Positions 17,803 through 45,061 of a stretch of DNA of 64,000 nucleotides are shown in pieces. A program made the position numbers and the translations under genes. Source of the stretch: Candidatus Omnitrophota bacterium (GTDB lineage Bacteria > Omnitrophota > Gorgyraeia > Gygaellales > Profunditerraquicolaceae); contig JAHJCJ010000069.1 of NCBI GenBank assembly GCA_018812825.1, positions 3,825 to 67,824 of the forward strand, in the 5' to 3' direction. Below the pieces are notes generated by a model. The model worked only from the letters and a program-made list of their open reading frames with translations, was not told where the DNA came from and did no database searches. How positions within the stretch are numbered: position 1 is the first letter of the stretch; every line of letters begins with the position of its first letter.

Positions 17803-18651
17803 CTATTGCCGCGCTTTAGCCGCCTCAACTAAATTACGCATTAACATTGTTACGGTTAAAGGCCCCACGCCTCCAGGGACAGGCGTAATGTAGCTTGCGC
17901 GTTTTTCAGCAGCCTCAAATTCTACATCACCCACGATTTTATCTGCGACTCTATTTATACCTACATCAATAACAACGGCTCCTTCTTTAATCCATTCGCC
18001 TTTAACGAGGCCGGCCTTGCCTACAGCTACAATCAAAATCTCAGCGCCCCTTACATGCTCTTCCAATTTTCCTGCTTTACTAGTTCCAATATGGCATACC
18101 GTAACTGTCGCAAATTTATCCAGCAATAAAAGCGCCAAAGGCTTACCCACTATTTCACTATGCCCCACAACTACAACCTCTTTGCCATATAAATCAATCC
18201 CGCCAGAATTGATCAGTTCCATTATCGAAGCCACAGTACATGGAATAAGTTTTGCCTTGCCGAATAAAATCTTTCCAATATTTTCCGGATGCATGCCTTC
18301 AATATCTTTCTCAGGAGCAATAAATTGGCTGATCTTTTTATAATCTATTGCCGCTGGAAGCGGCATCTGAATAATAATACCATCCACGGCCTTATCTACG
18401 TTAAGCTTAAGAATAAGATCTATCAAAACCTGTTCAGTAATATCCTTGTCCAGCTGGAACAGTTTATAAACTATGCTCAGATTCTCAGCGGCTTTAGCCT
18501 GAGACTTCACATAAGCAGCTGCAGCGGAATTATCTCCTACCAAAATACTGGCTAAAACCGGAGCTTGCTTTAAATCTTGTACCTGGTTCTTTATCTTTTT
18601 TTTAATTTCTTCAGCAACAGCTTTACCCTCTAATAATTTTGCCAACGCCAA
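17803..18651 (-). CDS. folD: Bifunctional methylene-THF dehydrogenase / methenyl-THF cyclohydrolase
   Basis: 282 aa with typical FolD motifs (ILVGDNSAAAAYV, IIQMPLP, VVVGHSEIVGKP). Confidence 0.9.
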   Translation of the reverse strand: MALAKLLEGKAVAEEIKKKIKNQVQDLKQAPVLASILVGDNSAAAAYVKSQAKAAENLSIVYKLFQLDKDITEQVLIDLILKLNVDKAVDGIIIQMPLPAAIDYKKISQFIAPEKDIEGMHPENIGKILFGKAKLIPCTVASIMELINSGGIDLYGKEVVVVGHSEIVGKPLALLLLDKFATVTVCHIGTSKAGKLEEHVRGAEILIVAVGKAGLVKGEWIKEGAVVIDVGINRVADKIVGDVEFEAAEKRASYITPVPGGVGPLTVTMLMRNLVEAAKARQ

Positions 18652-26433: not shown

Positions 26434-27504
26434 CTAAAAAATCTCTTCCTGATGCTCTTTATTAAACCCAAAGTTCGGGTCCAACTTTAAACCAAAATGT
26501 TCAAATGCCTTCCTCGTAACTAATCTGCCCCGGGCAGTGCGTTTTAAATACCCTGCCTTTAAAAGATATGGCTCAACTGTATCGGCGATAGTATCCACTT
26601 CTTCATTTAAACTGGCCGCCAGAGACTCAATCCCCACCGGCCCTCCGCCAAACGACTCAAGAATAAGTTTTAAGACTTTACGGTCTAAATCATCGAAACC
26701 CGCCTGGTCTATACCTAATTCATTAAGGATTTTTGAGGCTGACAGCTGATCCACTTGCTTAATCTTAAGCACCTGGGCATAGTCGCGTACCCGGCGCAAA
26801 AGACGGTTAGCAATACGCGGAGTCCCTCTGGCGCGCCGGGCAATCTCCAAACAAGCATCTTCATCAATTTGCACTGCCAATAACGCGCTTGAGTTCTTTA
26901 TAATCTTAGCTAACTCTTCTATTTTATAGAAATCAAGGCTGTAAAATATACCAAACCTTCCTCTAAGCGGAGCAGCCAAAAGCCCTGTGCGCGTAGTCGC
27001 GCCGATTAAAGTAAAAGGCTTGAGATTAAACTTGATAGTCTTAGCGTATGGGCCCTTATCAATCACAAAATCAATCTGGAAACTTTCCATCGCCGGATAC
27101 AAAAACTCCTCAACTACCTTGGACATGCGGTGTATTTCATCAATAAAGAGGATATCTCCAACTTCTAGGTTAGTCAGAATTCCAATTAGGTCTCCGGCGC
27201 GCTCAATAGCCGGACCACTAGTAGCAGTAATCTTAGCGCCCATTTCATGCGAAATAATATGCGCCAAAGAAGTCTTGCCCAACCCCGGAGGTCCGCTCAA
27301 AAGTACATGCTCTAACGGCTCTTTCCTCTGCTTGGTTGCTTGTATCGCTATTTTTAAGTTATCCACGATATCTTTATGGCCGACAAACTCGGTAAATTTC
27401 TTTGGCCTAAGGGATATGTTTAAAACTACATCCTCTTCGGATTCCTTAATATCAGCAATAATTGAATTAGCCTTAAGCAGTGTCCGCCTGGTCTCTTCGC
27501 TCAT
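26434..27504 (-). CDS. ruvB: Holliday junction branch-migration helicase
   Basis: 356 aa. Walker A motif LSGPPGLGKTSLAHII within a RuvB AAA+ architecture. Confidence 0.95.
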   Translation of the reverse strand: MSEETRRTLLKANSIIADIKESEEDVVLNISLRPKKFTEFVGHKDIVDNLKIAIQATKQRKEPLEHVLLSGPPGLGKTSLAHIISHEMGAKITATSGPAIERAGDLIGILTNLEVGDILFIDEIHRMSKVVEEFLYPAMESFQIDFVIDKGPYAKTIKFNLKPFTLIGATTRTGLLAAPLRGRFGIFYSLDFYKIEELAKIIKNSSALLAVQIDEDACLEIARRARGTPRIANRLLRRVRDYAQVLKIKQVDQLSASKILNELGIDQAGFDDLDRKVLKLILESFGGGPVGIESLAASLNEEVDTIADTVEPYLLKAGYLKRTARGRLVTRKAFEHFGLKLDPNFGFNKEHQEEIF

Positions 27505-28240
27505 AAGGTATGATATTTTCTTTATTCCTTGATATAATTATATCTTCAAATGCCGCATCCTGGTGAGTAATGATTTCTCTCATTTTTGCCAACTCCAATA
27601 TTGCCAGGAAGATTACGATTATTTCCATTTTATCTTTTGACTTATTAAACAACTCTGAAAGTTTAACCTTTGCCTGGATTAACAACAAGTGCAGGATATC
27701 ATGCACCTTCTGCTCAACGGTAAACTGATCTTTAATTACCTCATAAAAAACTTCTCTTGGGACATCTTTTAAGGCCTGAGAAAAAGCATTGATTAAATCA
27801 AATATGCTGGCTTCAAAATACACTTCCTCTTCCTTGGACTGCGCCTGGACGTCCAAAGGCACCTCTGTCTTTTGCCGCTTAAAAACATCTTGCTGGCTGA
27901 GCTCCCTTTCTCTTAAGTTCTCTGCGATCTGTTTAAATTTCTCATACTCCAGGAGCCTTTTTATCAGTTCGGCGCGCGGATCCTCCTGTTCTTCTTCCAC
28001 CGGTGTCTCGCTTGCCGGAAGCAGCATCTTTGATTTTATCTGCATAAGGGTAGCTGCCATCACTAGAAAATCTCCTACGATGTCCAGATCCAAAAGTTGC
28101 ATAAAATTAATATATTCCAAATACTGCTGGGTAACTTTGGCAATAGGAATATCGTAAATATTAAGATGGTCTTTTTTTACTAGGTACAACAACAGGTCTA
28201 GCGGCCCTTCAAACATCTCTAAGTGTATTTTATAATTCAT
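27473..28240 (-). CDS. scpA: Segregation and condensation protein A
   Basis: 255 aa. The N-terminal motif FEGPLDLLLYLVKKDHLNIYDIPIAKVTQQY is typical of ScpA. Confidence 0.85.
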   Translation of the reverse strand: MNYKIHLEMFEGPLDLLLYLVKKDHLNIYDIPIAKVTQQYLEYINFMQLLDLDIVGDFLVMAATLMQIKSKMLLPASETPVEEEQEDPRAELIKRLLEYEKFKQIAENLRERELSQQDVFKRQKTEVPLDVQAQSKEEEVYFEASIFDLINAFSQALKDVPREVFYEVIKDQFTVEQKVHDILHLLLIQAKVKLSELFNKSKDKMEIIVIFLAILELAKMREIITHQDAAFEDIIISRNKENIIPYERRDQADTA

Positions 28241-28241
28241 T

Positions 28242-29222
28242 TTATAATTTAAGTAAACTCCTTACTTCGGAGATAGTTTTTTTGGCAAAGCTTGATGCCT
28301 TTAACCTGCCTGCAGACAGAATATCCTGGATATGTTTTTTATCTTTCAGCAATACCCGCCTTTTTTCCTGGATAGGAGCCAATAAACCAATTATTTTATC
28401 TGCAAATTCCTTTTTACAAACGGTGCAACCGATTAATGATTTAACGCAACGATGCTCTGCCTCTTGCTTCAGCTCCGGGAAAAATATAGCATAATAACTA
28501 AAGACATTGCATTTATGCGGATGGCCCGGATCGCTTAAACGTATACGCTGCGCATCAGTAATCATATTTTGTACTTTTTTGCGGATTATTTCTGGTTCTT
28601 CGGATAACCCAATATAATTATCATAGCTTTTGCTCATCTTGCGGCCATCTAATCCCAAAAGACGGGTAGTTTCGGTAAGCAAGGCCTTTGGTTCGGGGAA
28701 ACAATCTGTCTTATAAAGATGGTTGAATTTACGCACGATCTGACGGGTTAATTCCAAATGCGGCAACTGGTCCTCTCCTACTGGCACAGCATCAGCCTTA
28801 TAAAGCAAGATATCCGCAGCCTGTAAAACCGGATAACCCAAAAAAGCATAGGTGCTTAAATCCCGGTTAGTTAACTCACGTAACTGTTCTTTATAGGTAG
28901 GACAACGTTCCAGCAACCCAAGCGGAGTAACCAAGGAAAGGATAAAATAAAGCTCGAGGTGTTCCGGTACCTGCGACTGGACAAAAATTGTGGATTTCCC
29001 GGGATCTATGCCGCAAGAAAGCCAATCAATAATATTATCCAACATGTTTGCCTTAAGGTTTCCCGAATTTTCATACTCTGACATAAGCGCATGCCAATCC
29101 GCGACCATAAAGAAACAATCATATTCATTTTGAAGCTTTGTCCAGTTGGCTAATGCGCCAACCAGATGGCCTAGGTGTAACTTGCCCGTAGGCCGCATCC
29201 CGCTTAATATTATTTTTTTCAT
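28242..29222 (-). CDS. trpS: Tryptophan--tRNA ligase
   Basis: 326 aa with the class I motifs GKLHLGHLVG (HIGH) and KMSKS. Confidence 0.9.
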   Translation of the reverse strand: MKKIILSGMRPTGKLHLGHLVGALANWTKLQNEYDCFFMVADWHALMSEYENSGNLKANMLDNIIDWLSCGIDPGKSTIFVQSQVPEHLELYFILSLVTPLGLLERCPTYKEQLRELTNRDLSTYAFLGYPVLQAADILLYKADAVPVGEDQLPHLELTRQIVRKFNHLYKTDCFPEPKALLTETTRLLGLDGRKMSKSYDNYIGLSEEPEIIRKKVQNMITDAQRIRLSDPGHPHKCNVFSYYAIFFPELKQEAEHRCVKSLIGCTVCKKEFADKIIGLLAPIQEKRRVLLKDKKHIQDILSAGRLKASSFAKKTISEVRSLLKL

Positions 29223-31372
29223 AGCTTCCTAGCAATCTTTTCTATTTCATAAGCCTCGATAATATCCCCCTCCATCAACTGATCAAACCCGCTGATAGCA
29301 ATACCGCACTCAACCCCTTCGGAGACATCACGCACATCATCTTTGAAACGCTTTAGGCTTGAAAGTTTTCCTTCAAAAGCAATCTGACCATTACGCACCA
29401 GCGTAACCATGCTATTGCGAATAAGCTTACCTTTAGTTACTATACAGCCGGCGATCAATCCGGAACGGGAAAGCTTAAACATTTTCTTAACCTCAGCCTC
29501 ACCTAAAAACACTCTCTTGAGCTTAGGGTCAAGCATGCCTTCAACTGCGGCTTTTATATCATTAGCCAGCTCATAAATTATATTATATATTTTTACTTCA
29601 ATACCTTCTTTAGAAATCAGCTCTTTGGCCAATTCATCAGCGCTGACATTAAAACCTACAATCAAGGCATCAGAAGCTACTGCTAAAATTACATCTGAAT
29701 TGTTAATATTACCTACTCCTATATGAATCACATCAATTTTTATCTCAGAGACATTTAATTTCTCCAGAGTGTCTTTAATTGCCTCCAGCGACCCTTGAAC
29801 ATCAGCCTTAATAATCAATTTTAACTCTTTTATTTTTCCTTCGGCAATTTGAGCATGCAGATCTTCCAGGCTTACCCTTTTTACGCTCTTTATCTGTTGC
29901 TGCCTTTCTTTTTCCACGCGCGCCTGGACTAAATCTTTTGCCTGCTTTTCATCTTCAATCACAAAGAATTGTTCGCCCACCTGCGGGATTCCGCTTATCC
30001 CCAGTATCTCTACGGGAGAAGCAGGGCCAACAGCAGTCACTGAGTGGGCCCGGTCATTAAGCATCGCCCGGATCTTTCCGTACAAGTTACCCACAATTAT
30101 ATTTTGGTTGAGATGCAACGTGCCGTTTTGCACAAGAAGCGTAGCCACCGGGCCCCTGCCTTTAGCCATCCTTGCCTCTACAACCACTCCGTTTGCAAGG
30201 CGATTAGGATTTGCCTTTAATTCCATTACTTCTGCCTGCAGCAAAATCATCTCAAGTAAGCTATCTATTCCTGCACCGGTCTTAGCAGAAACCAAAACAG
30301 TAATAGTTTTTCCACCCCAGTCCTCAGCAGTTAGGCCGACTTGCGATAGCTGCTTTTTAACCATATCAATATTTGCCTGCGGTTTATCTATTTTATTTAT
30401 GGCAACAATAATGGTTACTCCGGCAGCAGCCGCATGGTCAATTGCTTCCTGGGTCTGCGGCATAATTCCATCGTCAGCGGCAACCACTAAAACCACAATA
30501 TCGGTAATCCGTGCGCCCCGGGCACGCATAGCGGTAAATGCTTCATGGCCAGGCGTATCCAAAAAGGTAATTTCACCCTCAGGAAGACTAACCCGATAAG
30601 CACCAATATGCTGAGTAATTCCTCCATGCTCTTCTTCTGTGACCTTGGTCTTACGTATGGCATCAAGAAGAGAAGTCTTACCGTGATCAACATGACCCAT
30701 AAAAGTAACTATGGGCGAACGTTTCTTAAGCGCATCGAGTTTATCTTTTTCCTTATGTTCCTGCAATGCTGTATCTTCGGCGTTAAGAGCTTTCTTAATC
30801 GCAAAGTTATACTTTAAACACAGCTTATTAACGGCCTCCTCGTTGAGAAACTGGTTAATTCCAACCATCACTCCCATGCTCATAAAATGTTTTATGAGAA
30901 CGCTTGATTTTTCCTGTAATTTTACCGCTAAATCTTTTAGCGTAATCGGAAGTTCTATTTCAATCTCTTTACTCGGAGCAACTTCAGCTTTTGCCTCAGG
31001 AATAAGAGCTGATTTTTCCTCATGGATTACTTTAGTTTTAACCTCAAGCTCATGGACAGGTTTTGTTACAGGTTTGATTACAGGTTTTATTTCAGGCATT
31101 GCTTCATGCTTTAGCGCAGGCTTAATTACCGGCTTGACTTCTTCTTTTTTACTTTTTGCCACAGCCTTAGACTTCAAGGCATGAACCTTAGAAATGGCCT
31201 TCTTCGTTTTCACCTCAACTTTACCCGGCTCGATCGGACGAGCCGGTACGCGCTCCGCGCGCTTATGCGCAGCAACCCGCTTTATCGTAGGAACCGATAC
31301 GCGCTTATGCGCGGCAACTTTAGGTTTAGCCGCTTTCTTTACAACTGTCTTTTCTTTCTTTACCTTGGGCAT
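29219..31372 (-). CDS. infB: Translation initiation factor IF-2
   Basis: 717 aa. Lys-rich N-terminus and a GTPase domain with GHVDHGKTSLLD. Confidence 0.95.
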   Translation of the reverse strand: MPKVKKEKTVVKKAAKPKVAAHKRVSVPTIKRVAAHKRAERVPARPIEPGKVEVKTKKAISKVHALKSKAVAKSKKEEVKPVIKPALKHEAMPEIKPVIKPVTKPVHELEVKTKVIHEEKSALIPEAKAEVAPSKEIEIELPITLKDLAVKLQEKSSVLIKHFMSMGVMVGINQFLNEEAVNKLCLKYNFAIKKALNAEDTALQEHKEKDKLDALKKRSPIVTFMGHVDHGKTSLLDAIRKTKVTEEEHGGITQHIGAYRVSLPEGEITFLDTPGHEAFTAMRARGARITDIVVLVVAADDGIMPQTQEAIDHAAAAGVTIIVAINKIDKPQANIDMVKKQLSQVGLTAEDWGGKTITVLVSAKTGAGIDSLLEMILLQAEVMELKANPNRLANGVVVEARMAKGRGPVATLLVQNGTLHLNQNIIVGNLYGKIRAMLNDRAHSVTAVGPASPVEILGISGIPQVGEQFFVIEDEKQAKDLVQARVEKERQQQIKSVKRVSLEDLHAQIAEGKIKELKLIIKADVQGSLEAIKDTLEKLNVSEIKIDVIHIGVGNINNSDVILAVASDALIVGFNVSADELAKELISKEGIEVKIYNIIYELANDIKAAVEGMLDPKLKRVFLGEAEVKKMFKLSRSGLIAGCIVTKGKLIRNSMVTLVRNGQIAFEGKLSSLKRFKDDVRDVSEGVECGIAISGFDQLMEGDIIEAYEIEKIARKL

Positions 31373-31417
31373 AATCTCTCTCCCTGACCGCCTACAGGCA
31401 GGCTTTTATATTAAAAA

Positions 31418-32689
31418 CTAAGCTATTTTCTTTGCCTCTACAACTATCTTTTTAGCTTTCTTCTCTCCAATACCTTTAATCTTTACCAACCCCTCTTCCT
31501 TAATCTTGATTATATCATCAATACTATTAATCCCTGCTTCTTTTAAGCTCTCAATAATTTTATCTCCTACACCAGTAAGATCTTCTAAAGAAACCCCTTC
31601 ATTCTTAGTTATTTTCTTGGCTTCTTTCTTGGCTTCTTTTTTAACTTCTTTCTTGGCTTTCTTTGCTTTGGGTTCATCCCGTTGAGCATCTTTTGACTCT
31701 ATTTGGGCAACCTTGGTTTCCTCTTTTCCTCCCAGCGCCTCGGCAGCAATCATGCTCTTGGTGCGAATATCCAGTTCCCAACCCACGAGCTTAGAAGCCA
31801 AACGCACATTCTGGCCATGTTTACCAATGCTCAAAGAAAGCTGATCATCATCCACAATAACCCCGGCCTTCATCTTCTCCCTATCCAGTTTTATCTCGGA
31901 AACCTTAGCCGGAGAAAGGGCAGCTTTGATATATTCACGCACATCATCATTAAAACGCACAATATCAATCTTCTCACCTTGTAGCTCATTGACAATATTC
32001 CTTACACGGTTTCCGCGCATACCTACACAAGCGCCTACTGAATCGACTTTATCATTCTTTGAGCAAACCGAAATTTTGGTGCGCTCGCCTGCCTGGCGGG
32101 ATATAGCCTTTATCTCAACGATCCCCTCGTAAATCTCAGGTACCTCTAATTCAAATAACTCCTTAACTAGGTTAGGATGCGCACGCGACAAAATAATCTG
32201 CGGCCCCTTAACATCCTTTTTTACCTCAACAACATAAGCGCGGATACGTTGCCCCTGTTTAAACTCTTCTTTAGGAGATTGCTCGCGTTTAAGCAAAATA
32301 CCCTCGGTTTTACCCAACAGGTCAACAATTACATTGCCTTTTTCAAAACGGTAAACCGTACCACTAACAATCTCCCCTACACGGCTCTGAAACTCACCAA
32401 AAACTACATCTTTCTCCGCTTCGCGCATCTTCTGGATAATTACCTGGCGCGCAGTAGATGCGGCAATACGCCCAAAATCAATATTAGTTACCTTTTCGTT
32501 ATTGCGAAAAGCACAAATCTCCCCCGTAGAACGATCAATCTTAACTTTAAATTCCTCATCCGGTTTTAGATCAATCACTCTTTTGGCAGCGCTAAGCATA
32601 GCACTTTCTACTGCTTCAAGCATAACCTCTTTCTTGATCCCTTTTTCACGTTCAATCTGCTCAATAATTGCTAAAAGTTCATGACTCAT
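31418..32689 (-). CDS. nusA: Transcription termination/antitermination factor NusA
   Basis: NusA N-terminal, S1 and KH domains. The ORF extends to 32737, but a Met at 32689 (MSHELLAIIEQ...) preceded by ggagag is the likely start. Confidence 0.88.
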   Translation of the reverse strand: MSHELLAIIEQIEREKGIKKEVMLEAVESAMLSAAKRVIDLKPDEEFKVKIDRSTGEICAFRNNEKVTNIDFGRIAASTARQVIIQKMREAEKDVVFGEFQSRVGEIVSGTVYRFEKGNVIVDLLGKTEGILLKREQSPKEEFKQGQRIRAYVVEVKKDVKGPQIILSRAHPNLVKELFELEVPEIYEGIVEIKAISRQAGERTKISVCSKNDKVDSVGACVGMRGNRVRNIVNELQGEKIDIVRFNDDVREYIKAALSPAKVSEIKLDREKMKAGVIVDDDQLSLSIGKHGQNVRLASKLVGWELDIRTKSMIAAEALGGKEETKVAQIESKDAQRDEPKAKKAKKEVKKEAKKEAKKITKNEGVSLEDLTGVGDKIIESLKEAGINSIDDIIKIKEEGLVKIKGIGEKKAKKIVVEAKKIA

Positions 32690-32750
32690 TTTTAACTCTC
32701 CAGTTTTATTTATGGTATAAACACCATGCCACTGCAAAAAACATAGTTAG

Positions 32751-33230
32751 TTATTGCCAAAGACGCTCTTCTTGAATTACCAGCTTTGCCTTGTTTATTT
32801 TAATTAAGGGAATCTCCAAAACCTCCCCTGCATGATCGATAAATACGGCTGCTTCATTAACCCTGCTGATTGCCCCTTTACACTCACATTTCCCGTTTAC
32901 TAAACCAATGAGAAAAAATACCGCCTGTTTATTCAAACAACGCATAAAATCTTCCCTTGTCTTTAACGGCCTGTCAAGGCCGGGGGAAGAAATCTCTAAA
33001 CTATACTGGTCGGAAAATATATTCTTTTCATCCAACACTTGACGCACCAAACGGTTTAGTAAACCGCATTCTTCTAAGCTAATCCCTCCCTGCGACTTAT
33101 CCACAAGCAGGCTCAATAATAATCCGGAACCATCATGCCTAAAAATAATATCCACCAAGACAAAACCTTGCGCAGCAAACAAATCCCTAACTAATAAACT
33201 TATTTCTTGCTTTAGAACTTCTCGATTCAT
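32751..33230 (-). CDS. rimP: Ribosome maturation factor RimP
   Basis: 159 aa. The classic rimP-nusA-infB arrangement supports the call. Confidence 0.85.
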   Translation of the reverse strand: MNREVLKQEISLLVRDLFAAQGFVLVDIIFRHDGSGLLLSLLVDKSQGGISLEECGLLNRLVRQVLDEKNIFSDQYSLEISSPGLDRPLKTREDFMRCLNKQAVFFLIGLVNGKCECKGAISRVNEAAVFIDHAGEVLEIPLIKINKAKLVIQEERLWQ

Positions 33231-33261
33231 AGATATCTACACAAACCTATCTATCGAACAT

Positions 33262-34527
33262 CTACCCTTCAAGTTGATTATTAGTATAACCCGTTCTCGC
33301 CTTAATCTTATTATAACAACGCAAAGAAAATCCAGTGGCCTTTAATTCAGTAGGCCCATTATCACCCTGGCCAACAATAAAAATATCATCAAGCCCGTAA
33401 TCCTCGCCTTTTCTAACCTCGCTGACCTGCATCAGGCGACGCGAGCCATCAGATAATCTGACCATATGAATAACCAGGTCCACTGCGGATATAAACTGCC
33501 TCCTGACTACATCGCTTGAGACATTCGGATTACCTAAAAGCGCCAACATCTCAAGGCGGTCCATGGCATCATAAGTTGAATTAGCATGCAATGTAGTCAT
33601 AGAGCCGTCATGGCCGGTATTCATCGCCTGGACCATATCCCAGACCTCCTCAGCGCGTACCTCTCCTATAATAATTCGATCAGGCCGCATATGCAGGGCA
33701 TTTCTTAATAAAGTGCGCATAGAAATCTCACCCTTACCTTCAATATTTGGAATTCGTGTTTCAAGCGGCACAAAATGCTTATGGTTAAAATTAAGCTCCC
33801 GAGTATCTTCAATGGTAACGATTCTTTCTTTATCTGAAATATACCTGGCCAAGGCATTAAGCATGGTAGTCTTACCAGAGCCTGCCCCTCCGCAGATTAA
33901 AATATTTAGTCTGGCAGCAACACAGGCCTTCAAGAAATCTGCCACCATAAGGTTAAGCGTCTTTAAGCGCACTTGATCATCCAGGGTTAATAACTGATAA
34001 GACATCTTCCTAATAGTAAGCAATGAGCCAATAGAAGAAATAGGGCTTTTAACAATATTTATCCTTGAACCGTCTTTTAAACACGCATCCACGCACGGCT
34101 CTAAGCTGTTAACCCTTCTGCCGGAATAATCCAAAATACGTTCAATAAAATAGGCAAGCTGTGCTTCATCAGTAAAGACAATTTCAGTCAATTCTATTTT
34201 TCCGTTACGCTCTACATAAATCTGCTTGGGGCCGTTAATCATAATCTCCGAAATACTCGGATCCCTGAGCAGCATACCAATTGGCCCAAGTTCAATAAAA
34301 TGGGCAACTACCTCGTTTAAGAGCTCCTCTTCCTGGACGTGAGATAATTGAATTTTGTTATTACTGGCTATTTCTTTAATAACACAGGCGACAGAGGCCA
34401 CAAAAGCCTGGTCTTTTGCTATTAAGAAATCAAATTTTTTCCCGCTCTGATTATCAGTTAATTTTTCCAGCACCTGTTCAAACAAATCGTTTTGCTTTCT
34501 TACGCCTGCGGTTTTTTCCATTAACAA
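33262..34527 (-). CDS. CpaF/TadA-family type II/IV secretion-system ATPase (paralog 1)
   Basis: 421 aa. Walker A GGAGSGKTT, Asp box, Walker B DRIIIGEVR and His box GHDGSMTTLHANS. Confidence 0.8.
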   Translation of the reverse strand: MLMEKTAGVRKQNDLFEQVLEKLTDNQSGKKFDFLIAKDQAFVASVACVIKEIASNNKIQLSHVQEEELLNEVVAHFIELGPIGMLLRDPSISEIMINGPKQIYVERNGKIELTEIVFTDEAQLAYFIERILDYSGRRVNSLEPCVDACLKDGSRINIVKSPISSIGSLLTIRKMSYQLLTLDDQVRLKTLNLMVADFLKACVAARLNILICGGAGSGKTTMLNALARYISDKERIVTIEDTRELNFNHKHFVPLETRIPNIEGKGEISMRTLLRNALHMRPDRIIIGEVRAEEVWDMVQAMNTGHDGSMTTLHANSTYDAMDRLEMLALLGNPNVSSDVVRRQFISAVDLVIHMVRLSDGSRRLMQVSEVRKGEDYGLDDIFIVGQGDNGPTELKATGFSLRCYNKIKARTGYTNNQLEG

Positions 34528-34536
34528 TTCTTCCTT

Positions 34537-35796
34537 TCAATTAATATTAGCTAAACGTTTTATCTCTGCCAGAACCTGGTCCTTAGGACAGATTATTTTT
34601 TCTTTACTACTACTGCTTCGCAGTTTTATTTCAACAGTATTATCCTTAAGGTAAGAACGACCTATAATCACCTGCACAGGGATCCCTAAAAGGTCGGCGT
34701 CTTTGAATTTAATTCCCGCTCTTTCGTCGCGGTCATCCAAAAGTACTTCTTTGCCCGCATCAATAATCTGACGATAAATATCCTTGGCTAAATTTATAAT
34801 AGAGGCGTCCGCCACATCTAAAGGAAGAATAATCACGCTAAAAGGCGCTACCTCAAGCGGCCAGATAATCCCTCCGCTATCGTTATTCTGCTCAATAATT
34901 GCCGAAACTAGGCGCGAGACACCAATACCATAACAACCCATGATTATCGGTTTAAGCTGCCCCTTAGCGTCAGAGAAATTAGCCTGGATTGCCTGGCTAT
35001 ATTTTGTTCCTAACTTAAAAATGTGGCCGACCTCAATACAATTGAGTTTCTCCATTTTGGTTTTACATTTCGGACAATCCTGGCTATCTACCTCATTAAA
35101 AGTTCTGGCCCCTGCGCACTTTGGACATGATAAAACTACATCTTCCCCGTCCTGGCTGGGAACCATGAATTCATGTGAGACCTTGCCTCCCATAACTCCC
35201 GAATCCGCCTCAGTAATCATAATTTTTAGACCCAATCGTAAAAATATATTTTTATAGGCGCTAAACATCGCCTCATAATTCTTATTTAAACCTGCCTCAT
35301 CCTGGTCAAAGCTATAAGCATCTTTCATAATAAACTCACAGGCGCGGATCAAACCGAAACGCGGACGGATCTCATCGCGGAATTTAGTCTGGATCTGGTA
35401 TAAAACCAAAGGAAGCTGCCTATAACTGGAGACATGGCTTCTTACCAGATCCGTAATCGCCTCTTCATGGGTCGGGCCCAAACAGATACTCCTGCCCCGG
35501 CGGTCCTTAAAACTAAACATCACCTGGCCTAAATCTTTATCCCGATTGGTTTTCTGCCAAAGCTCCAAAGGCTGTAAAGCTGGAAGTAATAATTCATTTG
35601 CGCCGCAAGCATGCATCTCCTGACGAATAATCTCCTGAATATTCCCCAGGACCTTTAACCCTAAAGGAAGGTAAGAATACACGCCAGACATAAGCATGCG
35701 TACCAATCCGGCGCGCAACAGTAACTTATGGCTAGTTGATTCTGCCTCCTGCGGGTCTTCTTTTAATGTCGGGATAAAACTTCCACTCCAAAACAT
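34537..35796 (-). CDS. proS: Proline--tRNA ligase, short form lacking the INS editing domain, with a Cys4 zinc-ribbon insertion
   Basis: 419 aa with class II motifs. An insertion CPKCAGAR...CPKCKTKM replaces the editing domain. Sits in the conserved ispG-proS position. Confidence 0.85.
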   Translation of the reverse strand: MFWSGSFIPTLKEDPQEAESTSHKLLLRAGLVRMLMSGVYSYLPLGLKVLGNIQEIIRQEMHACGANELLLPALQPLELWQKTNRDKDLGQVMFSFKDRRGRSICLGPTHEEAITDLVRSHVSSYRQLPLVLYQIQTKFRDEIRPRFGLIRACEFIMKDAYSFDQDEAGLNKNYEAMFSAYKNIFLRLGLKIMITEADSGVMGGKVSHEFMVPSQDGEDVVLSCPKCAGARTFNEVDSQDCPKCKTKMEKLNCIEVGHIFKLGTKYSQAIQANFSDAKGQLKPIIMGCYGIGVSRLVSAIIEQNNDSGGIIWPLEVAPFSVIILPLDVADASIINLAKDIYRQIIDAGKEVLLDDRDERAGIKFKDADLLGIPVQVIIGRSYLKDNTVEIKLRSSSSKEKIICPKDQVLAEIKRLANIN

Positions 35797-35797
35797 A

Positions 35798-37060
35798 TTA
35801 ATCCTTATTAAAAGTTTCTTTTGATAAAACTACCCCTCTTTTAGCTAAAAGTGAATAGAATACCGGCTGAACTCCCGTAGCCCTAAAACGGCCGCTCACC
35901 TTGCCATGCTCAACAACATCATTTATCTCATAAAAGAAAATATCTTCAAGATTTACCCATCCATTCTTGAGCCCATTTATCTGGGTAACCCGGGTTATCT
36001 TACGTGAACCATCGACAAGTTGGTCCTGTTGAATAATTAAATTTAAAGATGCGGCAATCTGGCGGTGAATCGCTTCTAAGGATATAGGAATACCCGACAT
36101 CAAGATCATTGTCTCTATGCGGTGCAGGACCTCTTGAGGAGAGTTTGCGTGGATTACCGAAAGGGCTCCGTTATGTCCGGAGCACATCGCTTGAAGCATA
36201 TCCAGGGCCTCGGCGCTTCTGATCTCTCCCAAAATAATCCTCTGAGGCCGCATACGCAAAGAGTTCCTAAAAAGATCCCTAATACCGATCTCGCCTTTTC
36301 CTTCAATATTAGGCGGTTTAGTCTCAAGCCTGACTACATGATCCTGCGCCAGATGCAGCTCAGCCGTATCCTCAATAACAATGGTACGCTCATCATTATC
36401 AATGTAGCTGGAAAGCACGCCCACGGTAGTGGTCTTACCGCTTCCTGTTGCGCCGGCAAACATCATATTCACTTTACTTTTAATGCAAGCAACTAGAAAA
36501 TCCGCCATTCTTTTATCTAATGTATCCAGGTTGATAAGATCCTCTACCCTTTGGATTACCTTAAGAAACTTACGGATAGTTATTGTCGGGCCATCCAGAG
36601 CTAATGGCGGAATAATGATATTTACTCGCGAACCATCCGGCAAACAAATATCCGTATAGGGCTGGGTCTCATCTACGCGCCTTCTGGTAGGCGCCAAGAT
36701 CTTTTGGATAACATACATAAGCTGCTGATCGCTGTCAAATTTGATATCAGTCATCAGTTTTTTTCCACATTTCTCTACATATACATTATGCGTGCCATTG
36801 ATCATAATTTCCGTAACTTCATGATCCATCATCATTTTTTCAATAGGGCCAAAACCGACAAATTCATCAACCAATTCATTAATAATCGTGTCTCTCTCCT
36901 GTTCTTTAAGCACGCTACGCGGCTGATTAAGAATTCCTTCAAGTATCTGCCTGATTGTAGCCGCTACTTCTATTTTATTTCCGGCACTTTTAGATAGAAT
37001 ACTGCTGAATCGAGTAATGAAATCTTCGCGTACCCTGCCTTTTAGCGTTTGATGAGTCAC
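35798..37060 (-). CDS. CpaF/TadA-family type II/IV secretion-system ATPase (paralog 2)
   Basis: 420 aa. Walker A GATGSGKTT, Walker B QRIILGEIR and His box GHNGALSVIHANS. About 40-45% identical to paralog 1 by eye. Confidence 0.8.
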   Translation of the reverse strand: MTHQTLKGRVREDFITRFSSILSKSAGNKIEVAATIRQILEGILNQPRSVLKEQERDTIINELVDEFVGFGPIEKMMMDHEVTEIMINGTHNVYVEKCGKKLMTDIKFDSDQQLMYVIQKILAPTRRRVDETQPYTDICLPDGSRVNIIIPPLALDGPTITIRKFLKVIQRVEDLINLDTLDKRMADFLVACIKSKVNMMFAGATGSGKTTTVGVLSSYIDNDERTIVIEDTAELHLAQDHVVRLETKPPNIEGKGEIGIRDLFRNSLRMRPQRIILGEIRSAEALDMLQAMCSGHNGALSVIHANSPQEVLHRIETMILMSGIPISLEAIHRQIAASLNLIIQQDQLVDGSRKITRVTQINGLKNGWVNLEDIFFYEINDVVEHGKVSGRFRATGVQPVFYSLLAKRGVVLSKETFNKD

Positions 37061-38130
37061 GTCTTCTCCTTGGTTTTAAGTTCCTGTAATACAATCCGCA
37101 CACAATCGCCTGGAGATATTTTTCTCACTACTTTACCGTGTTTAAATAAAACACCTTCGCTTTTACCAAAAGCAACTCCAATATCCGCTTCTTTAGCCTC
37201 ACCCGGGCCGTTAACCACGCAACCCATTATAGCCAATTTCATCGGCCGAACCAATGGTCTATAGTCAGTAGCCGATAATTTATTTTCCAGGTCTTTTACT
37301 ATACTAATTAAGTTCACCTTGCAACGACCGCAAGTAGGACAGCTAATAACCTGCGGCCCGAAACCACGCAGGCCTAAAGACTCTAATATACATTTAGCTG
37401 CTCTGACCTCTTCTATCGGCTGCTCAGTCAAAGACACTCTTATTGTATCACCAATACCCTCCAGAAGTAAAGCCCCTAAAGCCACGCTAGATTTAATAAT
37501 CCCGCTGTAAACAGGGCCGGTAGCAGTCAAACCAAGGTGTAAAGGATAGCTGCAAACCTTGGAAATTTTACGATAAGCAGCAAGCGTATCCAAAACATTG
37601 TTGGCCTTAAGCGAAATCACTATATTGTTAAATTTAAGCTTTTCAATCATCTTTACATAATTCATGCAGGCAACCACTAATTTATCACCCATCGCATATT
37701 TTCTTAACCCGGCATATTTTACTGATCCGGAATTAAGTCCGATACGCAGAGGAATTCTGGCTGTTTTTAAAGCCGATACAACCGCTTCTATCTCATTTTT
37801 TTTATCAATATTGCCCGGATTTAATCTTATTTTATCCGCCCCATTTTCAATAGCGGAAATTGCCAGGCGCCAGTTAAAATGGATATCCGCTACAAGCGGC
37901 AGCTTCACTTTCGCCTTAATCCTCCTTAAGGCCGCGGCATCATTAAAGTCATTAATTGCCAGGCGCACAATTTGGCATCCCGCATCTCTTAATTGATTAA
38001 TCTGAATAACGGTATTTTCTACATCAGAAGTCCGGGTCTTAGTCATTGATTGGATCGTCACCGGGTTTGCTCCTCCTATCAAAACATCACCGATCTTTAT
38101 AACCTTACATTTTCTTCTTACGGTATCCAT
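37057..38130 (-). CDS. ispG: 4-hydroxy-3-methylbut-2-enyl diphosphate synthase
   Basis: 357 aa GcpE family, with the C-terminal cysteine motifs CPTCGRC and GCVVNGPGE. Confidence 0.9.
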   Translation of the reverse strand: MDTVRRKCKVIKIGDVLIGGANPVTIQSMTKTRTSDVENTVIQINQLRDAGCQIVRLAINDFNDAAALRRIKAKVKLPLVADIHFNWRLAISAIENGADKIRLNPGNIDKKNEIEAVVSALKTARIPLRIGLNSGSVKYAGLRKYAMGDKLVVACMNYVKMIEKLKFNNIVISLKANNVLDTLAAYRKISKVCSYPLHLGLTATGPVYSGIIKSSVALGALLLEGIGDTIRVSLTEQPIEEVRAAKCILESLGLRGFGPQVISCPTCGRCKVNLISIVKDLENKLSATDYRPLVRPMKLAIMGCVVNGPGEAKEADIGVAFGKSEGVLFKHGKVVRKISPGDCVRIVLQELKTKEKT

Positions 38131-38131
38131 A

Positions 38132-39214
38132 TTACTTCGTCATAAATTTGCTAATTTTATCACCATAAAGTCTCGATATATCATTGTAAGTAACTAATAA
38201 AGCTATTGTGATTATAAGAGTAAAACCAACATTATTAATTACACGCTCTGCCTTAATTCCCAGCGCCTTTTTCCTGAGTTTTTCCAGGCCCAGAAAAAAT
38301 ATATGCCCACCGTCAAGGATAGGTAGAGGCAAAAGATTAAATATTGCCAGGCTCACACTTAATACCGCAATCAAATGCATAACTGCAACTAAACCCAACT
38401 TTGCTGTTTTGGAAGTGATAAAGAATATTCCCAGTGGTCCAGTCATAGAATCACGCATAGACATCTTTCCGCTAACCAATCTCCATAACCCCCTATAGGT
38501 CATAACGGTTAAATCAACGGTTTTCTTAAAACCCAGATAGGCCGACTCAAAAAAACCGTGCCTGACTTCAATAACTTCATCAAAAGGGGAAACACCGATA
38601 ATGCCTAAGGAGCGTTTCTCCCCTAATTCATCGCCCAAAATCTTATCCTTAATTAATACCCTGAATTTCAATTCCTGATTATCACGCAAAACCTCCAGCT
38701 CTACGCTTTCTTTTACTTTTCTTTTCTGGATCTGGCGCTGCAGATCCTCCCATAAATATACCCTCTTACCATCTACAACGACAACTTTATCCCCTACCGC
38801 CAAACCAGCCTCTTTAGCGCCGTAACCATCAATTAACCCGCCAACCTTAGTAGTCAGGCTGGGATAACCCACAAAAAGAATGCACCAAAAAAATAAGAAA
38901 CCAAGCACATAATTTAAAAACGGTCCAAAGAAAATAATTTGGAAACGCCTGCCAATGCTTTTAGTAAGATACTCATCATCCTTGCCTTTATATTCTAACC
39001 GGCTATCTCCTGCCATCTTTACGTAGCCGCCTAAAGGTATAAGGCTTATGCTATATTCAGTATCATTTTTCTTTTTCTTAAAGACCTGCGGCCCAAACCC
39101 CAAAGAAAAATTCTCAACGCGTACGCCATTTCTCCGCGCGGCAAAAAAATGCCCAAATTCATGCACAATAATAAGCAGGCTTAAGATAAAGATAAAAATA
39201 AGTATACCAATCAT
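38132..39214 (-). CDS. rseP: Site-2 zinc metalloprotease RseP
   Basis: 360 aa. HEFGH zinc motif, a PDZ region and multiple transmembrane segments. Confidence 0.85.
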   Translation of the reverse strand: MIGILIFIFILSLLIIVHEFGHFFAARRNGVRVENFSLGFGPQVFKKKKNDTEYSISLIPLGGYVKMAGDSRLEYKGKDDEYLTKSIGRRFQIIFFGPFLNYVLGFLFFWCILFVGYPSLTTKVGGLIDGYGAKEAGLAVGDKVVVVDGKRVYLWEDLQRQIQKRKVKESVELEVLRDNQELKFRVLIKDKILGDELGEKRSLGIIGVSPFDEVIEVRHGFFESAYLGFKKTVDLTVMTYRGLWRLVSGKMSMRDSMTGPLGIFFITSKTAKLGLVAVMHLIAVLSVSLAIFNLLPLPILDGGHIFFLGLEKLRKKALGIKAERVINNVGFTLIITIALLVTYNDISRLYGDKISKFMTK

Positions 39215-39227
39215 GTCTAATTTAAAG

Positions 39228-40532
39228 TTAGCCGCCTATACAGACAGCCTCTTCCCTGGCCCAAACATCAGCAGCCATTATATCCGATAGATCCGGATTA
39301 ACTACTCTTGTGTGGCGCCGCATTACTTTTTCTACTATTTTTGGTATGGCTAAAAAATCAATCCGATTGTTTAAAAAATTATTTACACTAACCTCGTTCG
39401 CCGCATTCAAAACTGCTGGCATTGTCCCTAACTGCCTGGCTGCCTGATACGCAAGACTAAGGCAAGGAAACTTTCCCAGATCAGGTTTTCCAAAATGTAG
39501 TTTTTTTAGACGGTAAAAATCTATTCCCGGAAACTTATTAACCAGTCTCTGCGGATAAGTTAAAGCATATTGTATGGGTATACGCATATCCGCCTCTGAA
39601 AGTTGCGCCATGATTACGCCGTCATTGAACTCAACCATAGAATGGATCAAGGCCTCAGGATGAATCAATACCTTAATTTTTTCTACTCCTAAATTAAATA
39701 AAAACATCGCCTCAAGCAGCTCTAAACCTTTATTCATCAAAGTTGCCGAATCAACCGTTATCTTTCTACCCATCTTCCAACGGGGATGCCGCAATATTTT
39801 CTCCAAACCAACCCTTTTGAATTTACTGCGCGGTAAGCTCCTTAAAGGTCCTCCGGAAGCAGTCAGATATACCCGCCTGACATCGGATTGCCGAAAACCT
39901 CCCAGGCTCTGCCAGATCGCTGATTGCTCACTATCAACCGGCAGAACCCTAACCTTGTGTTTCTTTGCCAAACGCATAACCAAAGGACCGGCCATTACCA
40001 AAGCTTCCTTATTAGCCAAAGCAATATCTTTATTACTTCTAATCGCGGCAAGTAAAGGCTTAAGCGCAGCCGAACCGGTAATAGCGAACATTGCCAGATC
40101 GATTCTCTTATCTTTAACCATTTCGCTCAAGCCATCTTCTGCGCAAAAAACCTTTATTGATGAACTTAGATCGGCGCGTAGTTTACGGGCTGATTGTTCA
40201 TCTCTTACGCACACCAGTCGCGGCTTAAATTCTTTTATCTGCTGTTTTAATTTAACAATATCTGAATTAACGCTTAAAGCCTCAACCTTAAATTGCTGCG
40301 GCAGACTTCTAACCACCAAAAGCGTACTCTGTCCTATTGATCCGCTAGAACCTAACACCGCAATTCTCTTCACCCCGCACCTTCCTCTGTTAATTAATTT
40401 AAATCTAAATTTAATGCTTGAATAATAAGAAGACGCGGGATTTACCCCTTTTACACCTTCTCCTTTATTCATTTTTAAGCCAAACCCTATGCCCCTTCTA
40501 GCCATTAAACATAAAGAAGGCATAGGGTTCAT
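39228..40532 (-). CDS. dxr: 1-deoxy-D-xylulose 5-phosphate reductoisomerase
   Basis: The Dxr core begins at VKRIAVLGSSGSIG (GTG at 40373). The longer ORF, with its ATG at 40532 overlapping the cdsA stop, adds about 53 non-conserved residues, so the true start is uncertain. Confidence 0.85.
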   Translation of the reverse strand: MNPMPSLCLMARRGIGFGLKMNKGEGVKGVNPASSYYSSIKFRFKLINRGRCGVKRIAVLGSSGSIGQSTLLVVRSLPQQFKVEALSVNSDIVKLKQQIKEFKPRLVCVRDEQSARKLRADLSSSIKVFCAEDGLSEMVKDKRIDLAMFAITGSAALKPLLAAIRSNKDIALANKEALVMAGPLVMRLAKKHKVRVLPVDSEQSAIWQSLGGFRQSDVRRVYLTASGGPLRSLPRSKFKRVGLEKILRHPRWKMGRKITVDSATLMNKGLELLEAMFLFNLGVEKIKVLIHPEALIHSMVEFNDGVIMAQLSEADMRIPIQYALTYPQRLVNKFPGIDFYRLKKLHFGKPDLGKFPCLSLAYQAARQLGTMPAVLNAANEVSVNNFLNNRIDFLAIPKIVEKVMRRHTRVVNPDLSDIMAADVWAREEAVCIGG

Positions 40533-41323
40533 CTTACGATTACGCTAAGATAAAAATAAAATACCGGGGCAGTAAATAATAAACTATCAATCTGATCTAA
40601 TACCCCACCCATGCCCGGAAAAATACTTCCTGAATCCTTAATCTGACAGTCCCGCTTAAGCAGTGATTCAGAAAGATCACCCAATTGGCCAAGTACCCCT
40701 AAACAAATTGCAGTTAACAACAGCTGCCCATAACCAAAAGGCAAGAACGATTTACTGATTAACGCGCCTAAAACACTAAATAATAATCCGCCAAGCGCTC
40801 CTTCAATGGTCTTCTTTGGGCTTATATGCTGCATTAAAGGTCTTTTTCCCCAACGGCTTCCCACTAAATATGCCCCAATATCCCCCAATTTAACAATTAA
40901 CAATAAAGCCACCAGAAAACCAAATCCTCCTGAAAGATAGCGTATCTTTATGATAAAACTAAAAAACCAGGAAACATAAAGTATGCCAAAAAGCGTAGTC
41001 GAGATATCTACAATCACTCCAGAACTGTCCCGGCGTTTAAATTGCATAAGCAGAATAAAAAACAAAGCCAGGACAATAAAGAGCAACTCCCAGCTTTTAG
41101 TTGGCTCAAACCTGAACATGATAGATAGAGGAATAACCGCTCCCATGCCAATACCGAAATATTTATAGATATTTATCCCTTTTTTTTCAAGCATCATAAA
41201 ATATTCATATAATCCAACAATAATGAAAATAGTAGCTATTAATCCACAGAGCCAGTCAAAAAAAATCACTACTGAAATAACACTGATAAGTATGCCAGAA
41301 CTGATTATTCTTTTAACGAGCAT
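40529..41323 (-). CDS. cdsA: Phosphatidate cytidylyltransferase
   Basis: 264 aa polytopic membrane protein with the C-terminal CdsA signature. Sits in the conserved uppS-cdsA-dxr order. Confidence 0.8.
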   Translation of the reverse strand: MLVKRIISSGILISVISVVIFFDWLCGLIATIFIIVGLYEYFMMLEKKGINIYKYFGIGMGAVIPLSIMFRFEPTKSWELLFIVLALFFILLMQFKRRDSSGVIVDISTTLFGILYVSWFFSFIIKIRYLSGGFGFLVALLLIVKLGDIGAYLVGSRWGKRPLMQHISPKKTIEGALGGLLFSVLGALISKSFLPFGYGQLLLTAICLGVLGQLGDLSESLLKRDCQIKDSGSIFPGMGGVLDQIDSLLFTAPVFYFYLSVIVR

Positions 41324-42032
41324 CTAAGCCTCCAAACCTACGCTCTCTTTTTTGGTATTCTTTAATTGCTTCCCTTAATTCTTCCATCCCGAAATCCGGC
41401 CAGTATTCTTTAGAAAAATAAAACTCAGAATAAGAAAGCTGCCAGAGCAAGAAATTGCTGATACGCATCTCTTCGCTGGTGCGAATTAAAAGATCGGGAT
41501 CAGGAATATCCGCGGTATAAAAATAACGGCTAAATTGCTCCGACTCCAGGCTCTCAAGATCAGCCTTGCCAGTTAATACATCTTTTGCAAACTTCTTGGC
41601 AGCATCTACAATCTCCTGTCTGCCACCATAATTTAAAGCCAAAACAACCTTTAGGCCGGTATTACCACTGGTCTTTTCCTGTGCTTTTTTAATCTTTACT
41701 TGGAGATACTGAGGAATAGGATCATTTCTTCCGATAACCAAAAAGCGCATGTTATTCTTATGTAATTCAATAATCTCTTTATCCAGGAAATTACCCAGAT
41801 AGCGCATTAAGACATTAACTTCATTTTTTGGCCGGGACCAATTCTCTGTTGAAAAAGCAAAAAAAGTAACCGTCTGTATCCCTAATTGGCTTGCGCCACG
41901 GATAATCTCTTTTACGCGCTTTATCCCCTCCCGATGCCCGACAGTACGGCTCATGCCTTTTTCTTTTGCCCAGCGGCCGTTACCATCCATAATAAAAGCT
42001 ATATGCTTAGGGGTTTTAAGATTGTCCTGCAT
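41313..42032 (-). CDS. uppS: Undecaprenyl diphosphate synthase
   Basis: 239 aa. HIAFIMDGNGRWAK motif. Confidence 0.9.
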   Translation of the reverse strand: MQDNLKTPKHIAFIMDGNGRWAKEKGMSRTVGHREGIKRVKEIIRGASQLGIQTVTFFAFSTENWSRPKNEVNVLMRYLGNFLDKEIIELHKNNMRFLVIGRNDPIPQYLQVKIKKAQEKTSGNTGLKVVLALNYGGRQEIVDAAKKFAKDVLTGKADLESLESEQFSRYFYTADIPDPDLLIRTSEEMRISNFLLWQLSYSEFYFSKEYWPDFGMEELREAIKEYQKRERRFGGLDAR

Positions 42033-44719: not shown

Positions 44720-45061
44720 TCATTTTCCAGGGGCCTCTTTAAGCTTAGTTACATTTTTCAGCTCTTCTTTGAGGCCTTGGTTTACCAACTGCTCTTGGAC
44801 TAAAATTCCTTTGGTTTCTTCAAGCGCTGTCCTTACCTCTTCAGCCTCTTTTTCCTTTGCCTTGGCCCTTTCCTCTAAAGCTGACCTCTCCTGGGAGAAT
44901 TTGTTAATCTTTTCTTCTAACTGAAGACGCACAGCCATTTCTTTATCACGGCCGGATTTTTGGCGCATCGCGCTGTTATAAAAACTAAGTGTACCGAAAA
45001 AGAATATCGTCGTGCTTATCGCTAAAATAATAACTATGCGGTTCTTTAAAGCATCTTCCAT
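44720..45061 (-). CDS. Small membrane-anchored coiled-coil protein
   Basis: 113 aa: one N-terminal transmembrane helix followed by a Glu/Lys-rich coiled-coil. Confidence 0.4.
   Translation of the reverse strand: MEDALKNRIVIILAISTTIFFFGTLSFYNSAMRQKSGRDKEMAVRLQLEEKINKFSQERSALEERAKAKEKEAEEVRTALEETKGILVQEQLVNQGLKEELKNVTKLKEAPGK

Follow-up and report, generated by a model that had tools for sequence, protein, structure and literature searches.

What do two ATPases of the type II/IV secretion family do among the genes for isoprenoid synthesis and translation? The question is raised by a 64,000-nucleotide stretch of Candidatus Omnitrophota DNA (GenBank assembly GCA_018812825.1, contig JAHJCJ010000069.1, positions 3,825 to 67,824 of the forward strand; hereafter, the window), in which two paralogous ATPases of the CpaF/TadA type, here called U and D, are encoded on either side of proS. 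The reading that we prefer, tentatively and at a little less than even confidence, is that U is the core motor of a Tad-like machine encoded elsewhere and D a dispensable accessory that probably depends on U. The genes concerned, with positions in the window, are these:

26434..42032 (-): array uppS-cdsA-dxr-rseP-ispG-U-proS-D-rimP-nusA-infB-trpS-scpA-ruvB, co-directional and packed, junctions -32 to +45 bp
37057..38130 (-): ispG (GcpE), Pfam GcpE E 1e-131
35798..37060 (-): ATPase U, 420 aa, GTG start, T2SSE; the core copy, between ispG and proS
34537..35796 (-): proS, prolyl-tRNA synthetase of bacterial type, 419 aa, between both ATPases; tRNA-synt_2b and HGTP_anticodon, NCBIfam PRK09194
33262..34527 (-): ATPase D, 421 aa from TTG or 419 aa from ATG at 34521, T2SSE; the putative accessory copy
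32751..33230 (-): rimP, 31 bp 3' of D; Pfam RimP_N and RimP C-terminal domain

By sequence and, for D, by predicted fold, both proteins are secretion ATPases of the CpaF/TadA clade, as an original prediction made from the window had claimed. The Pfam family T2SSE (PF00437) matches U at E 1e-55 and D at E 1e-52. Among PDB entries, Caulobacter CpaF scores 354 bits with U (E 6e-105), against 117-129 for FlaI/GspE2 and 87-94 for VirB11, and 288 bits with D (E 1e-84), against 130-138 for FlaI/GspE2 (GspE2 138) and 118-120 for VirB11; of the three relatives that the original prediction had put up for comparison, CpaF/TadA, FlaI and VirB11, the first is thus by score far ahead for both. U shares 45% of its residues with CpaF in a 349-aa alignment that contains one gap, D is 42% identical to it over 329 residues, and the mutual identity of U and D is 40% over 359 aa. 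An AlphaFold2 (AF2) model of D (predicted local distance difference test, pLDDT, 79.8) finds its best PDB fold in CpaF 8rkd (E 1e-39, 411 of 423 columns) and shows the architecture of three-helix bundle, N-terminal domain and catalytic domain (3HB-NTD-CAD). For U this layout rests on the sequence alignment to CpaF in the PDB search (U 40-403 with CpaF 121-482), the confidence of its structure model (pLDDT 65.5) being too low for it to be used.

The top NCBIfam model for both proteins is TIGR03819 ('TadA family conjugal transfer-associated ATPase'), with 306.8 bits for D and 280.7 bits for U, both below its cut-off of 373.15. The models for FlaI (192-208 bits against a cut-off of 550), VirB11 (219 against 250) and TrbB (203 against 305) also stay below theirs, and an identity as FlaI or VirB11 was dismissed on the NCBIfam and PDB scores. 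Public records already label these proteins 'CpaF family protein'. All four ATPase boxes (Walker A, Asp, Walker B and His) are complete in U and D and also in the orthologues of both, 88 for U and 140 for D, with the respective K, E, E and H invariant. A concern that the Walker motifs might prove degenerate on alignment was thereby allayed; the wider claim of complete motifs holds for these four boxes and fails at the arginine fingers (U Cys139, D His279 and D Cys149), which are treated below. Similarly, lengths of 421 and 420 aa had been predicted, of which 420 aa stands for U; D most likely has 419 aa, its start being probably the ATG at 34521, two codons in, and at that length it matches a public record (P0121) with 100% identity. 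As members of this clade, both proteins would be hexameric motor ATPases.

The ATPase genes are closely joined to their neighbours. The ispG stop codon and the U start codon overlap in GTGA (4 bp, 37057-37060), and the gaps at the four junctions ispG/U, U/proS, proS/D and D/rimP are -4, +1, +9 and +31 bp, in agreement with the predicted tight coupling to essential genes. A Shine-Dalgarno sequence precedes both U and D, and promoter-like or terminator-like matches around them did not exceed their frequency in shuffled sequence. The predicted neighbours (uppS-cdsA-dxr-rseP-ispG-proS-rimP-nusA-infB) were all matched by Pfam or NCBIfam, and the array order from uppS to infB recurs in the loci of relatives. 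Almost certainly, U is transcribed together with these essential isoprenoid and translation genes and coupled to them in translation.

All close homologues of U and D came from Omnitrophota metagenome-assembled genomes. The nearest genome is UBA6253, whose U is 93% identical to that of the window, and the U of GWA2_41_15 is 57% identical; Seymour et al. (2023) assign the former to Velamenicoccia; Gygaellales; Profunditerraquicolaceae; Amyimicrobium, and the latter is Gorgyraia. In their naming, the genome of the window belongs to Velamenicoccia, Gygaellales and Profunditerraquicolaceae, close to Amyimicrobium. When GTDB species were scanned, each represented by one genome, U orthologues of 54-93% identity turned up in about 62 Omnitrophota loci. 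U stands after ispG in all 56 assessable loci and before proS in 57 of 57. Its mean identity to the window copy (73.7%) lies among those of ispG (68%), proS (70%) and nusA (77%); for D the mean is 56.8%. Compared with its two nearest relatives, U has a ratio of non-synonymous to synonymous substitution rates (dN/dS) of 0.05-0.06, equal to that of nusA. Judged by this conservation and placement, U is a core gene of the class, fixed between ispG and proS.

D has a different distribution. It fills the slot between proS and rimP in 16 of 53 species and is missing from the other 37, in whose loci no remnant of it was found: proS and rimP lie -6 to 216 bp apart in 36 of them, and the 512-bp stretch in the last (L021) is the unaligned end of proS. 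The pairing of ATPases described by the original prediction is therefore real in the window, and U is universal, but D is absent from most species; likewise the synteny that it had proposed to check in relatives is kept for the U slot and for only a minority of D slots. On the U tree, the presence and absence of D require at least nine state changes. D is present in one basal clade and again, here and there, among derived ones, always in the same slot, and its identities track those of U; in the simplest history D would be ancestral, vertically inherited and then lost repeatedly. Its dN/dS of 0.12 equals that of ispG and indicates purifying selection where D is present, although its rate of change is about double that of U, and 93 of 409 D columns are conserved at 95% or more. 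The possibility that D is a pseudogene was excluded by this dN/dS together with the invariant catalytic residues.

U and D fall into two clean orthologous groups, each 38-44% identical to the CpaFs of Clostridia, Coriobacteriia and Caulobacter. Because the identity between them is no higher than that of either to the CpaFs of other phyla, U and D are regarded as ancient paralogs. A recent tandem duplication was excluded, as the U-D distance equals that between CpaFs of different phyla.

Neither ATPase has its machine nearby. Pfam scans (56/61 open reading frames (ORFs) of at least 60 aa) gave no T2SSF, Flp, Peptidase_A24, secretin or TadZ in the window, where the sole ParA-like ORF is CooC beside CooS, and a six-frame motif scan of the window gave no Flp or type IV pilin leader. 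These scans uphold the earlier statement that platform, pilin, prepilin peptidase and secretin genes are lacking in the window. The orphan state ascribed to both ATPases was likewise confirmed in relatives, since no machine genes occur within 10 kb of U in the approximately 62 Omnitrophota loci. The closest relatives outside Omnitrophota, met in the same scan and serving as positive controls (L071 and L084), lie in canonical Tad loci, with the order A24 peptidase, TadZ-like, CpaF, T2SSF and Flp1-like in Clostridiales and ParA/TadZ-like, CpaF and T2SSF in Coriobacteriales. A search with U of protein representatives, the members of its 10 near-full-length matches and a homolog search with P0253, itself a mainstream Firmicutes CpaF, revealed no ATPase of an Omnitrophota Tad locus.

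Genes of the D family were found in three further contexts (L004, L088 and L091), again with no machine genes nearby; elsewhere than in the proS-rimP slot they sit among housekeeping genes (dnaX-recR, accA, efp-accBC). The gene in L088 has padR on one side and marR on the other, with an RND pump adjacent, and that in L091 lies among efp and accBC genes. In L004 (11270-12619 on a 1.19-Mb contig, ENA ERZ25039512 contig_50884) the D-family ATPase adjoins a 449-aa ATPase, X449, followed by dnaX-recR; among solved structures X449 is closest to GspE2 from the archaeon Archaeoglobus (178 bits, above CpaF and FlaI), and in this locus a different Omnitrophota lineage again has two adjacent ATPases without a platform. 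No pilin-like small ORFs were found beside the D-like gene of L004. As far as gene context tells, the orphan state is a stable property of both families.

What sets U and D apart from other members of the clade is their arginine fingers. Cryo-EM work on Caulobacter CpaF, in two studies (PMC12019362, PMC11300603), assigns three arginines to every active site: R217 and R223 from the subunit's own N-terminal domain, and R347, which is carried by helix 9 of the adjacent subunit and touches the gamma-phosphate. According to the same studies, all type IV filament ATPases conserve R347, and mutation of its PilT equivalent leaves cells without twitching. The alignment is gap-free at the R217 and R347 positions, and alignment to Caulobacter CpaF places the finger codons of the window as follows:

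36644..36646 (-): U Cys139 codon, at the position of the cis finger R217
36254..36256 (-): U Arg269 codon, the trans finger R347 retained
33691..33693 (-): D His279 codon, at the position of the trans finger R347

The R217 position is occupied by C, S or A in 88 of 88 U-family sequences, all of which keep R at the R347 position. The D family shows the reverse, with R at the R217 position in 118 of 140 sequences (the window D, with Cys149, is an exception) and H at the R347 position in all 140. As a background, 151 diverse CpaF representatives keep R217 in 146 cases and R347 in 147, and the Firmicutes CpaFs matching the motif have R at the two positions in 110/110 and 119/119, respectively; R also occupies the R347 position in all sequences from Clostridia, Coriobacteriia and Caulobacter and in X449. 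Both families retain R223 and R359. By alignment, then, the U and D families are marked by a complementary, family-wide loss of different near-universal catalytic arginines. This is a departure inside the CpaF/TadA clade and no evidence of another clade, and it suggests that U and D may not be ordinary stand-alone pilus motors. We have also noted three CpaF representatives of 630-703 aa (P0319, P0345 and P0358) with His at the trans finger position, so the change from R to H may have arisen outside the Omnitrophota D family too.

An AlphaFold3 model predicts that CpaF contacts the CpaG/CpaH platform through G204, R205, R206 and D208 of loop 8 and E331 and G334 of the pore loop (PMC12019362). 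At these sites U reads R-R-R-x-D, E and G, and D reads G-R-R-x-(S/T/N), E and G, each highly conserved within its family; hence R205/R206 and E331/G334 are kept in both, and D208 in U. Loop 8 and the pore loop are among the best-conserved segments of both families. Residue 126 of U (36683-36685, -) is Arg at the position of loop-8 Gly204 in 87 of 88 U sequences, giving 'RRRVD'; the additional arginine might conceivably make up for the lost R217.

According to a preprint by Whitfield et al. (2026; 10.64898/2026.02.24.707734), CpaF retracts pili when docking via its C-terminal face, and the retraction motifs are P386/R387 at the N-terminus of alpha11, the beta13-beta14 turn and a C-terminal motif. 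U has P386 in 88 of 88 sequences, with the turn 'EHGKVxGRF' and the C-terminal motif intact; its position 387 is Q in 49 of the 88 and R in only 8. D retains P386 in 71 of 140 sequences, has L or Y at 387 and carries a deletion of 5-8 residues in the turn, which lies in the window at:

33349..33408 (-, approximate): shortened beta13-beta14 hairpin of D, residues ~374-393, with a 5-8 residue deletion against Caulobacter CpaF and U

In these features, the predicted retraction face of D resembles that of the motors termed 'single-orientation' in the preprint.

Comparison with characterised systems places the two proteins nearest to the single bifunctional Tad/type IVc motor, CpaF/TadA, for which Caulobacter crescentus CpaF (PDB 8RKD, 8RJF, 9E24) is the nearest solved relative of both. 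They have the length of the CpaF construct from which the intrinsically disordered region (IDR) was removed, and share with it R223, R359, the ATP boxes, E331/G334 and R205/R206. They differ from it in lying outside any tad locus, within a housekeeping array; in being two ancient paralogs instead of one gene; in the absence of the N-terminal disordered region; in the missing R217 of U and R347 of D; and, on the retraction face, in the lack of P386/R387 and the shortened turn of D and the Q at 387 of U. The clustering of tadB/tadC, tadZ, flp, prepilin peptidase and rcpA typical of Tad pilus systems is absent for U and D in the 64-kb window, and they are also without the helicase or TadE-like neighbourhood of TIGR03819 proteins. 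FlaI/GspE2 (PDB 4IHQ, 4II7, 2OAP) shares the superfamily and the three-domain layout and gives the second-best PDB matches (117-138 bits), but is far more distant than CpaF. VirB11/TrbB proteins have in common with them the PilT/VirB11-like core, for which the PDB search gave 94-120 bits, but are shorter and without the three-helix bundle, and there are no conjugation genes near U and D.

PilT and PilU are motor ATPases encoded apart from the platform genes, one a core motor and the other an accessory paralog that is dispensable and depends on the first. The likeness to U and D would be one of logic only, a core and a dispensable accessory copy distant from platform genes: PilT/PilU belong to another clade (45-53 bits with D, and not past the 1e-10 threshold for U) and have no N-terminal three-helix bundle, and there is no sign of a retraction role here.

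How might the two ATPases then work? Since the ATP boxes and most of the platform-contact residues are kept in both, the usual mechanism of the family is the most likely. Embedded in an essential, tightly coupled array, U would be constitutive, made whenever the cell grows. The ring ATPase would dock beneath a polytopic T2SSF platform encoded elsewhere in the genome, and the docked ring would drive a Tad-like filament or secretion apparatus for attachment or predation by host-dependent nanobacteria. U would be the principal motor, and D would act with or on U, modulating it or depending on it, as PilU does with PilT; without the trans finger and the retraction face, D would probably be unable to run as an independent ring. 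What the sequences show is the family, the kept synteny, the losses of D, the selection on both genes and the altered residues; we infer the co-transcription, the engagement of a platform, that such a platform is encoded in this genome at all, and how U and D would share the work. The literature offers candidate machines. TadBC and RcpA are reported in 74 of 116 Velamenicoccia species; Tad complexes are said to be encoded by 'most genomes' of the order Gygaellales and, within the genus Amyimicrobium, by 'some genomes'; and V. archaeovorus is described as having a Tad locus that is both complete and expressed.

A number of observations weigh against our preferred scheme. Platform, pilin, secretin, TadZ and prepilin peptidase genes were missing within 10 kb of U or D in all of about 65 loci. 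Tad complexes are reported to be absent from some Profunditerraquicolaceae and from most Gorgyraia; U occurs in every species sampled and looks wider in distribution than the reported, patchy Tad clusters, and one Gorgyraia genome (L062) carries both U and D. In the portion of a published KEGG Orthology (KO) table that covers genome 231, cpaF is listed and none of cpaB, cpaC, cpaE, tadB and tadC; this is a hint only, because KofamScan is weak on divergent TadB/C. The secretion locus beside the giant genes of Omnitrophota is reported to have a gspE-type ATPase of its own, and so U and D may be surplus there. Furthermore, U lacks the R217 kept by 97% of other CpaFs and is not a textbook CpaF, and the analogy with PilT/PilU, such as it is, is limited to location and dispensability.

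Other explanations account for part of these observations. Both genes could be ordinary members of a split locus, with an ATPase-less Tad cluster elsewhere, U being its relocated tadA/cpaF and D a redundant duplicate in the course of being lost, a reading that we rate as unlikely. The orthodox CpaF length of U, its 45% identity to the Caulobacter protein and the reports of Tad clusters in this order and genus speak for it, as does the fact that the published survey scored TadB, TadC and RcpA only and not TadA; the repeated loss of D would also fit. However, the purifying selection on D (0.12), its invariant His and its 93/409 columns at 95% or more show no decay, the Tad locus of V. archaeovorus was called 'complete', the giant-gene secretion locus was reported with a gspE-type ATPase, and U seems more widespread than the reported Tad clusters. 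Even less probable, in our view, is a platform-independent role, for which U would have been recruited to housekeeping (envelope, isoprenoid-lipid or ribosome/translation functions) or to the translocation of DNA or protein. U does have the universality, constraint and operon position of a core gene, it is unlinked to machine genes in about 62 loci, D-family genes elsewhere lie among housekeeping genes, and the arginine fingers are altered in both families. Such a role is hard to reconcile with the strong conservation of the predicted platform-contact loop 8 and the pore loop, and to our knowledge no CpaF-clade ATPase works without a T2SSF platform; in addition, gene order may carry little functional information in streamlined one-strand genomes (61/61 ORFs are co-directional here). 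Because both proteins keep the predicted platform-contact residues, a role unrelated to pili appears less likely.

The complementary finger losses invite a more specific proposal, namely that U and D build a mixed, alternating U3D3 ring with three catalytic and three non-catalytic sites, as in F1-/V1-type rings; we regard it as improbable. The D-centred site of such a ring would combine D's own R217 (in most species) with R269 of U and be fully equipped, and the U-centred site would have neither a cis finger (C/S) nor a trans finger (His from D). In favour of it, losses that are rare elsewhere (about 97% of the background keeps each arginine) are complementary and family-wide here (R217 in 88/88 U, R347 in 140/140 D), which lends some unexpected support to the hetero-oligomeric motor raised by the original prediction. 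The two genes are one gene apart in a single tight array, in syntenic loci D accompanies U wherever the upstream flank is present, the D-family gene of L004 is directly beside an ATPase that has the arginine finger, and some predicted proteins carry covalently fused tandem CpaF modules. Yet D is absent from 37 of 53 species (70%), including close relatives with 90% U identity; U must therefore work without D there, where it lacks R217 too, and an obligatory hetero-oligomer cannot be the general mechanism. In addition, Cys149 at the R217 position of the window D would make the D-centred site not fully canonical here, the D-family genes of L088 and L091 are solitary, lacking another ATPase within 10 kb, and independent losses would share one interface half the time by chance. 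There is only a slim chance that U and D would represent the first known hetero-hexameric motor of the PilT/VirB11 class, arisen in the ancestor of Koll11-class Omnitrophota and often simplified later to a U-only ring devoid of R217.

Five predicted proteins (P0241, 1156 aa; P0242, 1605 aa; P0243; P0244; P0249) contain 2-4 tandem full CpaF modules each. P0241 has three complete R217/Walker A/R347 sets, and one module of P0242 has His at R347. They could be real covalent multi-CpaF rings or artefacts of gene calling. As evidence of contact between U and D they were dismissed, since the modules are generic CpaFs of other lineages and not U-like plus D-like.

Some further features of the window deserve mention. 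All 61 ORFs of at least 60 aa lie on the minus strand, the GC skew is negative throughout (-0.13 to -0.27), and tRNA and Rfam scans of the 64 kb gave no tRNA genes and no Rfam matches. Within the array, proS scores 579 bits with PRK09194 (cut-off 558), and the 559-position model is matched in two stretches (residues 3-235 and the C-terminal part), for which reason the protein is taken to lack the INS editing domain; as proS of relatives also has 412-431 aa, this appears to be a trait of the lineage. The longest ORF of dxr (39228-40532, -) has 434 aa, with a Pfam match starting at residue 54-57, while relatives have 381-390 aa; its true start is probably about 50 codons 3' of the first start codon. 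A Wood-Ljungdahl/one-carbon (C1) gene set, interleaved with molybdenum-cofactor genes, occupies 327-4671 and 8188-18651 (-) and includes:

327-2231 (-): CooS-type carbon monoxide dehydrogenase (CODH)
2228-2980 (-): CooC, next to CooS
2977-4671 (-): formate-tetrahydrofolate (THF) ligase
8188-10902 (-): formate-dehydrogenase-like molybdopterin enzyme
10906-13917 (-): NuoF-like/pyridine-nucleotide-oxidoreductase fusion, 1003 aa

MTHFR, FolD and an FTCD_C protein are also part of it. The set fits the acetogenic metabolism proposed for Profunditerraquicolaceae.

Additionally, the 292-aa trigger factor (53729-54607, -) has Trigger_N and Trigger_C matches and no match to the peptidyl-prolyl isomerase (PPIase, FKBP) domain. 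One 298-aa ORF (55521-56417, -) joins LptC-like and LptA/OstA-like domains and is surrounded by a lipopolysaccharide (LPS) cluster with lptB, kdsC, kdsD, kdsA, kdsB and a 673-aa double heptosyltransferase (61582-63603). A 573-aa cysteine-rich protein with a signal peptide (48593-50314, -) has no Pfam match. Next to an OmpA-family gene lies a conserved protein of 113 aa (44720-45061, -), which has a transmembrane segment at its N-terminus and also a coiled coil, and which is kept at the same place in two relatives (L001 and L002).

Omnitrophota are abundant, uncultured and ultra-small, and are thought to be predators or parasites, for which their Tad-like machinery is among the main genomic arguments. 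The published surveys scored the Tad platform and the secretin and not the motor. The annotation 'CpaF family protein' and the Tad systems of Omnitrophota were already known; in the papers searched, we found no description of the class-wide fixation of ispG-CpaF-proS, of a second paralog in the proS-rimP slot with repeated loss, or of the complementary finger substitutions. A CpaF-type motor hard-wired as a core gene into an essential operon of Omnitrophota provides a simple marker, and the question becomes what this motor drives in lineages with no reported Tad cluster. U and D are also two natural families, each short of a different near-universal finger, and in D the predicted retraction face is degenerate as well. 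They offer material for testing current models in which one CpaF ring powers extension as well as retraction, and for asking if rings can be mixed.

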